Origin: a bacterium
GTDB lineage: Bacteria > UBA10199 > 2-02-FULL-50-16 > JAJFLM01
Length of the DNA: 64,000 nt
Direction of reading: 5' to 3'
Assembly: GCA_965216315.1 (NCBI GenBank)
Contig: CBDCFN010000016.1
Coordinates: forward strand, 2,277,060-2,341,059
This document shows positions 32,901 through 54,368 of the stretch, piece after piece. Under the pieces are notes generated by a model. That model searched no databases, was not told the origin of the DNA, and worked only from the letters and a program-made list of their open reading frames with translations. The number at the start of each line of letters is the position of its first letter. The stretch's first letter is position 1. A program made the position numbers and the translations under genes.

Positions 32901-34976
32901 ATGCCCGCCGCCGTTGCCAAGATCGCCATTCCCGCACCACTCTACCGCCTCTTTGACTATGCTATCCCAGAGACCCTCCAGGACCAAATCCAGGTGGGCG
33001 TGCGCGTTCAAGTCCCCTTCGGGCGCCAAGACAAGATTGGCATTGTGGTGGAACTAGCCGAGACCTCCACGTTTAAACGCCTCAAAGCCATCAACGCCGT
33101 ACTGGATGAAGCCCCGCTAATCGACGAGAAGATGATGGAGCTTGTCCTCTGGGGCGCGCGTCATTATCTCGCTCCGCCGGGCGAGGCCTTTCGGGCCGTA
33201 CTCCCAGCCGCCTTTTGGAAACCAACGAAACGTCGCCGCACTGTTAAGCCACCACCAGCACCGGCCGCGTTCCAGCCGAAAGACATCAACTTTAACGAGG
33301 GACAGCTACAGGCAATTGAAACTATTTGGGGCGATATTGACTCGCGACGGGTGACGCGAGCGAACCTTCGGACCGTCATTTCAGACGCAGCCGAAGGTTT
33401 GCGAATGCGGCAGGACCCGTCCACTGGAATTTATTTACTCCATGGCGTCACCGGCAGCGGCAAGACCGAGGTCTATCTGGAATTGGCTCGGCGCCTGCTC
33501 GATAGTTCCCCCCACACCAGTATACTTATATTAGTCCCCGAAATCGGCTTAACCCCGCAGCTCCTCGGGCGGAGTGCCGCAGAGCTTCCGGTCCCGGTCG
33601 TCGGCTACCACAGTGGCATGACCCCGCGGCAACGCCAAGAGGTCTGGGAACAGTGTCAGCGCGGAGACATCCGCGTCGTTGTCGGAACCCGCTCGGCCCT
33701 CTTTCTGCCCCTCCAAGAGCTTCAAATGATCGTCGTCGACGAGGAACACGACGGCTCTTTCAAACAGGAGGAGCGGTATCGCTACAACGCCCGCGACCTG
33801 GCCATTGTTCGCGGCCGCATTGAAGAGGCCACGGTCATCCTCGGCTCGGCCACCCCCTCCCTCGAGTCGCTCCAACGCTGCCGTGAAAACAAGTACCAGT
33901 ATCTCACGCTTCCCGAGCGCGCTGGCCCTGGTGAGCTCCCCAAGCTAGAGTTTGTCGATCTGGGCCGCGAGGCCTCGGACTGCCTGCTCTCCCGCGAGCT
34001 CGCCGAGGGCATCGATGACACACTCCAACGCGGGGAACAATGCATGCTCTTTCTCAACCGGCGGGGGTTTAGCCCCGTCCAACTGTGCCGGGACTGCGGC
34101 GCCTTCCTCCAATGCCCTCACTGCCAGATCAGCCTGACCCTCCACAAAGGCAAACAGCGGCTCGTCTGCCACTATTGCCTCTATGAACAAAAGGAAGCTC
34201 CCACGTGCTCCAGCTGTGGCTCAGCCCGCGTCATTTGGGTCGGGCATGGCACCGAACGCATCGAAGAGGATCTGCAGCAGCGCTTTCCGCGGGCGCGGAT
34301 CGCCCGGCTCGACCGGGACACGACGGCCAAGAAAGGCGTCCTGGAAGCCACCCTCGAAGCGATGCGTCAGGGCCAAATCGATATCCTCGTCGGCACCCAA
34401 ATACTGACCAAGGGTCACGATTACTCCCAGGTCACCCTGGTCGGCGTTCTGCTCGCCGAAGGGACCCTCAATTTTCCCGACTTCCGCGCGAGTGAACGGA
34501 CCTTCCAGGTCATCACTCAGGTCGCAGGGCGCGCGGGTCGCGGTGATCAGGCGGGCCGCGTCATCATTCAGGGCTATCAACCTCAGCATTACGTCATGCG
34601 GGCCGCCCTCGACCACGACTATGCGGGCCTCTCCGACCGCGAACTGGCCACACGCCGCGACTTGCATTATCCCCCGTTTGCGCGCCTGATCCAGCTAGTG
34701 TTTCGGGCCCTCGACAGCTCGAAAACGATTAAGGCCTGCGCCAGCGCAGCGGACCATCTCAACGGCGCGATTGGAAAATACGGCCAGCTCCTGGGTCCGG
34801 CCCCCTGTGCGATCGAAAAGCTCCGCGGCCAGTATCGCTGGCAGCTTCTGATCAAGACCCATCAGTATCCCCACGTTCGCGACCGACTTCAGGCCTGCCT
34901 TGACGCGGATTTTCCAAATATCCTACCATCAGGCGTACACGTCGCCGTAGACGTGGATCCGCTAAATATGTTGTAG
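32901..34976 (+). CDS. priA: primosomal protein N' (replication restart helicase PriA)
   Basis: Walker A HGVTGSGKTEVY, DExH-like VVDEEHD, Cys-rich zinc-binding insert CRDCG...CPHCQ...CHYC...CSSCGS; 691 aa; carries an in-frame copy of the structured repeat at 33357-33419. Confidence 0.9.
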   Translation: MPAAVAKIAIPAPLYRLFDYAIPETLQDQIQVGVRVQVPFGRQDKIGIVVELAETSTFKRLKAINAVLDEAPLIDEKMMELVLWGARHYLAPPGEAFRAVLPAAFWKPTKRRRTVKPPPAPAAFQPKDINFNEGQLQAIETIWGDIDSRRVTRANLRTVISDAAEGLRMRQDPSTGIYLLHGVTGSGKTEVYLELARRLLDSSPHTSILILVPEIGLTPQLLGRSAAELPVPVVGYHSGMTPRQRQEVWEQCQRGDIRVVVGTRSALFLPLQELQMIVVDEEHDGSFKQEERYRYNARDLAIVRGRIEEATVILGSATPSLESLQRCRENKYQYLTLPERAGPGELPKLEFVDLGREASDCLLSRELAEGIDDTLQRGEQCMLFLNRRGFSPVQLCRDCGAFLQCPHCQISLTLHKGKQRLVCHYCLYEQKEAPTCSSCGSARVIWVGHGTERIEEDLQQRFPRARIARLDRDTTAKKGVLEATLEAMRQGQIDILVGTQILTKGHDYSQVTLVGVLLAEGTLNFPDFRASERTFQVITQVAGRAGRGDQAGRVIIQGYQPQHYVMRAALDHDYAGLSDRELATRRDLHYPPFARLIQLVFRALDSSKTIKACASAADHLNGAIGKYGQLLGPAPCAIEKLRGQYRWQLLIKTHQYPHVRDRLQACLDADFPNILPSGVHVAVDVDPLNML
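33357..33419. repeat. structured repeat copy inside priA coding sequence
   Basis: about 80 percent identical over about 65 bp to 54304-54368; contiguous shared cores CCTTCGGACCGTC and AGACGCAGCCGAAGGT. Confidence 0.6.
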
Positions 34977-34988
34977 GAAATAGACACT

Positions 34989-35549
34989 ATGCTGTTAGAC
35001 ATCGTTAAATACCCGAACCCGGAACTCACGAAGGCCTGTGCCCCCGTTGACGCCGTTAATCAGGACATCCGTCAACTCGTGACCGATATGTTCGAAACCA
35101 TGTACGCCAATCAGGGCGTCGGGTTGGCGGCCCCCCAGGTAGGCGTCCCTCTCGACCTACTCGTTATCGACGTCGGGCGGCTCGAAAATGAAGAGACTAA
35201 GCCGGACCCGATTGCCTTGATCAATCCTCAACTTAAGAGCCAAGAAGGCAAAATTATCTGGGAAGAAGGCTGCCTTTCGTTGCCTGAGCTCATCGTCCCG
35301 GTCGAGCGTTCCGCCAAGGTCGTCGTGACGGCCCTCAATCCGGATGGAAAGGAAATTACCCTCCTCGGGGAAGAACTACTGGCCGTTGCCCTCCAGCACG
35401 AGATCGACCACCTCAACGGCATCCTCCTCGTCGACAAGGTCTCGCGGCTCAAGCGTGACCTCTATCGCAAAAAATTGGCTAAGCATGAGGTCATCGAGGA
35501 ATCGATCGAGGCCCCCGCCGTAGCCAGTCGAAAACCTTATCTGGGGTAG
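34989..35549 (+). CDS. def: peptide deformylase
   Basis: motifs GVGLAAPQVG, EGCLS, QHEIDHLNG. Confidence 0.9.
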   Translation: MLLDIVKYPNPELTKACAPVDAVNQDIRQLVTDMFETMYANQGVGLAAPQVGVPLDLLVIDVGRLENEETKPDPIALINPQLKSQEGKIIWEEGCLSLPELIVPVERSAKVVVTALNPDGKEITLLGEELLAVALQHEIDHLNGILLVDKVSRLKRDLYRKKLAKHEVIEESIEAPAVASRKPYLG

Positions 35550-35554
35550 AAGCG

Positions 35555-53668: not shown

Positions 53669-53717
53669 TAGACTCTTTTGAGTGCCAACTCGAAACCCTA
53701 ATAGCCTCGAATCTACC

Positions 53718-54269
53718 ATGACGCCCCTGAGACGCTTCTATCGCGTCCAGGGGCGCATGCCTAGCTACGAGGAGATGAAGGAGCTGTATGGCTATGCCTC
53801 CAAGAATGCCGCTTATTACCTGGCGAATAAGCTGATCGAGGCGGGATATATTATTAAAGATGCTACCGGACGCTTGTTGCCAGCGGGGAAGCACTTTGGT
53901 CTGCCTGTCCTAGGCTATGTGCAGGCCGGCTTCCCCAGCCCGGCGGAAGAGGAACTCATCGATACCCTGAGCCTGGACGAGTACCTGATCGAGAGCCCGG
54001 AGATGAGCTTTATGCTCAAGGTCACGGGAGACTCGATGATTGAGGCGGGGATCCATCCGGAAGACCTCGTCATCGTCGAACGAGGCCAACAACCGAAGAA
54101 CGGCAACATCGTCTTGGCTCAAGTGGATGGGGAATGGACTCTCAAGTATTATCAAAAAAAGAAGAACCAACTCTTCCTCGTCCCCGCCAATCATAAGTAT
54201 CCGATTATCCGACCCGAACGCGAATTGAGGGTCGAGGGAATTATTCGCGCCGTTATTCGAAAATATTGA
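53718..54269 (+). CDS. lexA: LexA-like repressor (S24 peptidase family)
   Basis: N-terminal winged-helix region, Ala-Gly cleavage site context (VQAGFP), S24 catalytic GDSM and downstream Lys; start at ATG 53718. Confidence 0.75.
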   Translation: MTPLRRFYRVQGRMPSYEEMKELYGYASKNAAYYLANKLIEAGYIIKDATGRLLPAGKHFGLPVLGYVQAGFPSPAEEELIDTLSLDEYLIESPEMSFMLKVTGDSMIEAGIHPEDLVIVERGQQPKNGNIVLAQVDGEWTLKYYQKKKNQLFLVPANHKYPIIRPERELRVEGIIRAVIRKY

Positions 54270-54303
54270 CCACAATTGATTTATAAGTGGACGCCGGGTG
54301 GTT

Positions 54304-54368
54304 CGAGCTGCCTTCGGACCGTCTGCGTTTTGAGACGCAGCCGAAGGTCTGCGAAGAATCAGGACCCG
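54304..54368. repeat. structured repeat copy in lexA/Y-family-polymerase intergenic region
   Basis: nested inverted repeats CCTTCGG...CCGAAGG and CTGCGT...ACGCAG; homologous to 33357-33419. Confidence 0.6.

Follow-up and report, generated by a model that had tools for sequence, protein, structure and literature searches.

A diverged hairpin repeat shared by priA and a lexA–polymerase spacer in an uncultivated bacterial lineage

Introduction

In-frame and intergenic palindromic repeats have been described in several bacteria. REPs of the CGTC type have a stem of 8–9 base pairs (bp) that starts with two A/T pairs, a loop of 4–5 nucleotides (nt) and a tail close to CCA (PMC3733652). Intragenic REP dimers, which encode 20–30 amino acids, are in many cases located in replication and repair genes; the genes that bear them include uvrABCD, recBCD, polA, dnaE and dnaE2, sometimes the sole decorated genes of a species, and priA and the lexA–polymerase spacer are not among the REP targets listed (PMC3733652). 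RPEs insert in frame into housekeeping genes, and bacterial MITEs within operons, such as Correia and ERIC, are co-transcribed and can alter the expression of their neighbours, with in-frame fusions described as well (PMC10969869). Here we analyse a hairpin-forming repeat of 76–78 nt in a 64,000-nt stretch of bacterial DNA (the window; GenBank assembly GCA_965216315.1, contig CBDCFN010000016.1, positions 2,277,060 to 2,341,059). One copy lies inside priA and the other in the spacer between a lexA-like repressor gene and a gene for a Y-family DNA polymerase (Table 1).

We consider it fairly probable that this element belongs with the short, non-coding palindromic repeats of the REP/MITE/RPE kind and that it entered two tolerant sites in its lineage. 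This reading follows from a 76–78 nt palindrome present as diverged but compensated copies, one a translated and the other an intercistronic insertion, both at tolerant sites. The original prediction had called the pairing of such a structure with replication and repair genes unexpected, which overlooks that intragenic palindromic repeats in such genes were already in the literature (PMC3733652).

Results

As had been claimed, the two copies share the cores CCTTCGGACCGTC, which occurs exactly at 33365 and 54311, and AGACGCAGCCGAAGGT, which occurs exactly at 33383 and 54333. All four sites are on the + strand and neither core occurs elsewhere in the window. The claim of a repeat of about 65 bp holds as to the homologous pair; the unit itself is longer, with edges set by an outer stem of 7–8 bp that closes it. 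An alignment of the copies has 62 identical columns out of 86, or 62 out of 80 when gapped columns are left aside, so that two segments 21 kb apart on the same strand differ by about 22% and three indels. A 23-nt core gave E = 2e-5 in a blastn-short search of the 64-kb window, with a colinear exact 13-mer in addition. When a covariance model built from both copies (model R1) was run over the window with filters off, copy 1 scored 102.8 bits and copy 2 101.6 bits, and the next match 16.6 bits (E 0.19). The E value of the core and this gap in score place the similarity of the copies beyond chance. GC-rich palindromes of the form CCTTCGG/CCGAAGG are common, and a 20-base pattern drawn from the element returned 60 unrelated matches elsewhere; even so, chance resemblance is effectively refuted by a similarity that extends over the whole 76–78 nt at more than 100 bits. 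The same verdict applies to the idea that a conserved PriA peptide is encoded by DNA with a fortuitous likeness to the spacer, since the peptide is absent from every PriA orthologue aligned.

Folded alone, each copy forms a single long imperfect hairpin, and RNA structure prediction thus bears out the inverted-repeat structure originally proposed. The minimum free energy is −42.6 kcal/mol for copy 1 (z = −4.9) and −45.9 kcal/mol for copy 2 (z = −5.2), with none of 200 shuffles equally stable in either case. The complementary strand is less stable, at −38.4 kcal/mol for both copies (z = −3.3 for copy 1 and −3.9 for copy 2), and DNA parameters give the same ranking as RNA (z = −4.7 and −4.5, respectively). 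The consensus structure comprises 24 pairs in four stacked helices; the apical stem is longer in copy 2 (CTGCGTT/GACGCAG). Scored on this structure, which was derived from the same two copies, all seven substitutions at paired positions keep the pairing; they include three compensatory doubles (A-U/C-G, C-G/U-A and G-C/U-A) and one change from A-U to G-U. Random placement of seven stem substitutions would keep all pairs with a probability of about 1e-4. Of the 38 unpaired positions, 11 are substituted and 6 are gap columns, a contrast with the paired positions at Fisher p = 0.003. Because the stem changes all keep pairing, we infer that the hairpin was maintained while the sequence diverged, and the G-U pairs identify the sense strand as the more stable folding strand.

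Copy 1 is translated in the priA frame as RRVTRANLRTVISDAAEGLRMRQDPS and lies in the variable linker that separates the QxxA motif from the Walker A box GVTGSGKT. An in-frame insertion into priA had been suggested, and orthologues with the same peptide would have spoken against it; we aligned 13 PriA orthologues and all 13 were without the segment, including syntenic relatives with 63% (P0002), 59% (P0003) and 55% (P0004) identity. The linker is 31 residues long here versus 6–13 in the three closest relatives, with the others about as short, and deletion of the 26 codons leaves a typical linker (WGDIDS/TGIYLLHG, with the slash at the junction). The neighbourhood, which runs from a YacP-like gene to priA-def-fmt-rpe, is common to the window and to relatives L061 and L062. 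In an AlphaFold model of PriA (mean pLDDT 85, pTM 0.87) a helix at residues 133–159 is extended by part of the insert; residues 158–170 have a pLDDT below 50, and given this low model confidence we read the rest of the insert as a flexible loop. In the PriA frame copy 1 has ATT TCA GAC where copy 2 has TTT TGA GAC, so the coding copy either lost an in-frame stop or never had one. Judged from the alignments, the priA copy is a lineage-specific insertion, and it is probably a neutral passenger loop.

Copy 2 had been placed in the promoter region of an SOS polymerase. It lies instead in an operon spacer: the LexA-box-like palindrome TTGAACGATCGTTCAA is upstream of lexA, and in most relatives the two genes abut or overlap. 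The window has only three GAACN4GTTC sites, of which this palindrome is one; it lies 50 nt before the lexA ATG and is the probable SOS operator of a lexA–polymerase operon. With the box in that position, lexA and the polymerase gene are best read as one SOS operon; in Geobacter, lexA–polymerase operons are transcribed as one unit (PMC6511836). The LexA-like protein has a VQAG cleavage-site motif, a GDSM serine and a downstream lysine, its N-terminus looks winged-helix-like by eye, and it is 50–69% identical to the product of the gene upstream of the polymerase in most relatives. The start of the polymerase is fixed by an in-frame TGA 9 nt before the ATG, which rules out an earlier start, and relatives align from residues 1–4. 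Within a spacer of 115 nt, the copy 2 hairpin begins 24 nt past the lexA stop and leaves 14 nt between its end and the ATG of the polymerase. Among 80 metagenomic relatives and three others, lexA is directly upstream of the polymerase in 62 loci, and the gap measured by tblastn is at most 84 nt in about 47 of these. In the closest retrievable relative (L064; 69% identity for both the polymerase and LexA), which keeps the same polymerase/zinc-ribbon/Lon/ClpX/ClpP neighbourhood, the stop codon of lexA and the start codon of the polymerase overlap (TAATG). Since the pair abuts or overlaps in most relatives, the 115-nt spacer is derived and mostly made up of the element; on this comparison of loci, the operon copy is a lineage-specific insertion.

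We found no terminator-like site in 53300–54600, where the copy 2 hairpin is followed by GCAATTGAAATAAAATG, and an intrinsic terminator was rejected because there is no T-run after the hairpin. A promoter-like TTGAGA-18-AAGAAT within copy 2 was also discarded, such sites being no commoner than in shuffled sequence.

Three further features of these loci were seen. The GAACN4GTTC ('Cheo-type') LexA box is used by relatives as well as by the lineage of the window, and at L065:9715-9730 and L066:57-72 it lies within a TTGACA promoter that immediately precedes the polymerase. In a metagenomic relative whose polymerase is 67% identical, additional genes occupy 2.7 kb between lexA and the polymerase (L140:7285-10000), among them an open reading frame (ORF) that by eye resembles a Phd/YefM-type antitoxin, a further sign that this junction accepts insertions. 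Immediately upstream of the LexA box in the window, on the same strand, is a small ORF of 74 amino acids (53414–53637; MTEKAERDIEKGYSTSEF...), which may resemble amphi-Trp-domain proteins.

Hairpins also occur at other lexA–polymerase junctions. When structure was scored as a shuffle-based z-score, on which ordinary minimum-free-energy structures lie above −2, a strongly structured hairpin (z ≤ −4) was present in 7 of 10 long lexA–polymerase spacers, the one in the window included, compared with 30 of 204 intergenic regions elsewhere in the same loci (Fisher p = 2e-4). Hairpin-split pairs were seen in six further lineages, with sequences unrelated to the element and z from −4.3 to −6.2, and several of the junction hairpins end 0–14 nt before the polymerase ATG.

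This enrichment bears on a different explanation, in which the element is a selected cis-regulatory hairpin of RNA or single-stranded DNA, recruited to control genes of DNA-damage tolerance; it might be a target of RNase III or another nuclease, or a protein-binding site, that tunes the polymerase and PriA together. Besides the structured spacers, such a role would fit a structure kept by compensatory change, the greater stability of the sense strand and the roles of both host loci in replication restart or translesion synthesis. However, the comparison of spacers is confounded, as long spacers must hold inserted DNA and this usually consists of palindromic elements; the enrichment is compatible with simple insertion of palindromic DNA, and also with hairpins selected convergently to restrain a mutagenic polymerase. 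The element matches no Rfam family at E up to 10, the closest relatives lack it at both sites, so that it is not conserved, and two sites cannot establish a regulon. We therefore regard a regulatory origin as quite improbable. The more elaborate proposal that the junction hairpins are a convergently acquired post-transcriptional brake, that the same hairpin acts in the priA message and that one hairpin-recognising factor co-tunes replication restart and translesion synthesis is very doubtful; candidates for such a factor would be RNase III or a DNA/RNA hairpin-binding protein.

Assignment to the REP/MITE/RPE kind of repeat has to be set against a number of observations that weigh on the other side. 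No more than two copies are known, at a distance of 21 kb within 64 kb of the source genome. Model R1 found no copy in 72 kb around the priA and polymerase genes of relatives or in 729 kb of metagenomic lexA–polymerase loci. The exact pattern CCTTCGGACC-N5-30-GACGCAGCCGAAGG had 0 matches in metagenome contigs, and an exact-pattern scan of viral contigs likewise gave 0. The looser 20-base pattern, run over 185,579 species-representative genomes, yielded 60 singletons, all unrelated. No transposase or RAYT domain was detected with Pfam in 63 of the 66 predicted ORFs of the window. In a formal covariation control, the best score attainable with two rows was reached by 66 of 500 shuffles. No convincing target-site duplication was found at either copy. 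The GTAG tag of REPs is absent, and although CGTC is present in both copies beside the apical stem (33374–33377 and 54320–54323), its setting departs from the definition of CGTC REPs: the adjoining stem has 4 bp in copy 1 and 5–7 bp in copy 2 instead of 8–9, its second pair is G-C and not A/T, and the tail is CCG and not CCA.

Several of these searches were followed further. BLAST of the 60 singletons revealed no similarity outside the pattern, and three weak model matches (22–26 bits) were set aside as conserved Burkholderiales coding sequence with variation at third codon positions. Plasmid and phage collections returned nothing but a chance 35-nt mycobacteriophage match (E 0.2). None of 4227 Rfam models matched either copy on either strand, and the only Rfam matches at gathering score in the window were three tRNAs. 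Concatenated six-frame peptides (374 residues) had no match among 5.8 billion proteins in a word-indexed search whose positive control failed: even PriA, present in the database and identical to the query over 30 consecutive residues, was missed, and such negatives are untrustworthy. A 32-residue PriA segment had 0 matches among 1.84 billion cluster representatives, which is uninformative because the query is short and PriA is probably not one of the representatives. By PriA and the polymerase (about 40–59% identity), the nearest named relatives are metagenome-assembled genomes labelled Deltaproteobacteria, Nitrospirae or Syntrophales.

At the flanks, copy 2 is bordered by the similar strings CAATTGATTTATAA and CAATTGAAATAAAA, which match at 11 of 14 positions, and copy 1 by TATTGACTC and TATTTACTC. 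The downstream string of copy 1 belongs to a conserved part of the PriA coding sequence (IYLL), and the 97-nt spacing of the copy 1 flanks would break the priA frame; the likeness of the strings is probably an AT-rich coincidence. The sequence fits none of an attC-like repeat, a CRISPR-like repeat and a LexA operator inside the element. A pair of the diversity-generating retroelement type was rejected as well: substitutions involve all four bases and the scanned ORFs contain no reverse transcriptase.

Two copies near each other in 64 kb, in the same orientation, with no further copy in any collection or relative searched and no transposase in the scanned ORFs, are also what would be expected if a hairpin segment had been copied once between the spacer and priA, by template switching or ectopic repair, and no family existed. 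We consider such a one-off duplication unlikely. Despite about 22% divergence and three indels, every stem substitution pairs; preserved pairing of this kind needs either long-term selection at both sites or descent from different compensated masters, and the latter implies a family. Template switching, moreover, normally copies nearby sequence and not sequence 21 kb distant.

Table 1. Location of the repeat copies, their host genes and hairpin-bearing lexA–polymerase spacers in other loci
Feature	Position	Strand	Description
Hairpin repeat copy 1	33346..33421	+	76 nt; within priA, in frame, about residues 149–174; outer stem GACGGGT/ACCCGTC
Hairpin repeat copy 2	54293..54370	+	78 nt; spacer between lexA-like gene and Y-family polymerase gene; outer stem GCCGGGT/ACCCGGC
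priA (primosomal protein N', 691 aa)	32901..34976	+	Pfam PriA_3primeBD, DEAD, Helicase_C, Zn_ribbon_PriA, PriA_C
LexA-like repressor gene (183 aa)	53718..54269	+	Pfam Peptidase_S24; upstream neighbour of copy 2
Y-family (DinB/UmuC-like) DNA polymerase gene	54385..55686	+	Pfam IMS, IMS_C, weak DUF4113
LexA-box-like palindrome TTGAACGATCGTTCAA	53653..53668		Upstream of lexA; GAACN4GTTC
Hairpin spacer	L065:9862-9990		
Hairpin spacer	L067:9830-9960		
Hairpin spacer	L073:6138-6262		Same as L074
Hairpin spacer	L099:9899-9991		Same as L105
Hairpin spacer	L118:1832-1917		
Hairpin spacer	L143:231-335		

The window contains other repeated or structured sequences. Four to five DUF4423 paralogues (3721–4569, 7373–8233, 10214–11062, 43573–44427 and, weakly, 18151–18774) have stretches of 66–150 nt with 60–77% DNA similarity (repeat families D2, D3, I1 and I2). 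Near the first of these genes the 23-nt palindrome TGTTGACnnAnGTCAACAGATAA occupies four intergenic sites (2844–2866, 4767–4789, 5549–5571 and 5711–5733) and resembles the operator of a local regulator. The start regions of two minus-strand genes have in common a stretch of 63 nt (31688–31750 and 43397–43459; 73% identity) that includes the start codon, a ribosome-binding site (GGAGGTGTG) and sequence upstream of it; the two genes may have a common 5′ leader or promoter. The YacP-like gene is closely preceded by a perfect inverted repeat of 16 bp (GTGAACAACGTGAACA-TATAT-TGTTTACGTTGTTCAC, 29239–29275; z = −4.2 for the region), which could be an operator or a structured leader. Finally, two tRNA genes of equal length, 334 nt apart (42219–42305 and 42553–42637), are 97% identical over the 31-nt stretch compared, and a perfect AT-flanked hairpin that adjoins them (42180–42217; z = −7.0) looks like a bidirectional terminator.

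Discussion

We favor a model in which a short palindromic repeat entered two tolerant sites. In this scenario the copies would be made by hairpin-dependent copying, either by a transposase acting in trans or by replication- or repair-associated copying of a single-stranded hairpin. The copy in priA would persist because its 26 residues are harmless. In the operon, the copy would act as an RNA hairpin between the two cistrons and do away with the translational coupling of the ancestral pair, and it would probably lower polymerase expression relative to LexA, or uncouple the two, as an intercistronic REP does in E. coli.

If the element is confirmed as a family, in-frame palindromic insertions in housekeeping proteins would be extended to an uncultivated lineage, and the reported tendency of such repeats to lie in replication and repair genes would gain two new targets, PriA and a lexA–polymerase operon. 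The two loci also offer natural experiments. One is on how much insertion the PriA linker before the Walker A motif tolerates, the other on the effect of a stable hairpin that splits a translationally coupled pair of repressor and mutagenic polymerase.

How does the element compare with the described repeats? It is without sequence relatives in any collection searched, and membership in a named family is not supported. The likeness to REPs and REP dimers (Di Nocera et al. 2013) is one of form and placement: these are short palindromes that can form a larger hairpin and lie mostly between co-directional genes, with some intragenic copies. CGTC-type REPs are without a known dedicated transposase. 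REP families, however, number tens to thousands of copies per genome, compared with the two seen here in 64 kb. Further hallmarks of REPs are a GTAG or CGTC tag left unpaired at one end of a 20–40 bp stem-loop, and an associated RAYT (Y1 transposase) gene that the repeats flank.

RPEs provide the nearest parallel for the coding copy, as palindromic repeats that lie in frame in housekeeping genes, add a surface peptide and leave the protein intact, with other copies intergenic. In-frame insertion at a tolerant site of a conserved protein is a behaviour that the element has in common with RPEs, though it does not amount to membership. RPE-1 is about 100–150 bp long, is confined to Rickettsia and has dozens of copies, each of which encodes a conserved peptide; the present element has a single known coding copy, its intergenic copy is interrupted by a stop in the PriA frame, and the named relatives lie outside the Rickettsiales. 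To our knowledge, RPE sequences are unrelated to that of the element. Like MITEs, the element is small, hairpin-forming and non-autonomous, and its outer stem of 7–8 bp, CG(A/C)CGGGT ... ACCCG(T/G)CG, corresponds to their terminal inverted repeats; at 76–78 nt it falls at the small end of their size range, and the window holds no parent insertion sequence.

For the operon copy the closest comparison is with the intercistronic REP/BIME hairpins of E. coli, as in malE–malF, which are expected to protect the upstream mRNA and to reduce downstream expression. The sequence is unrelated and the effect on the polymerase is put forward by analogy, but the arrangement of a stable hairpin between two cistrons is the same. 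Altogether, repeats that behave in this way are already known in bacteria, and the element described here represents no new kind of system but a familiar one, a palindrome found both in frame within a gene and between genes.

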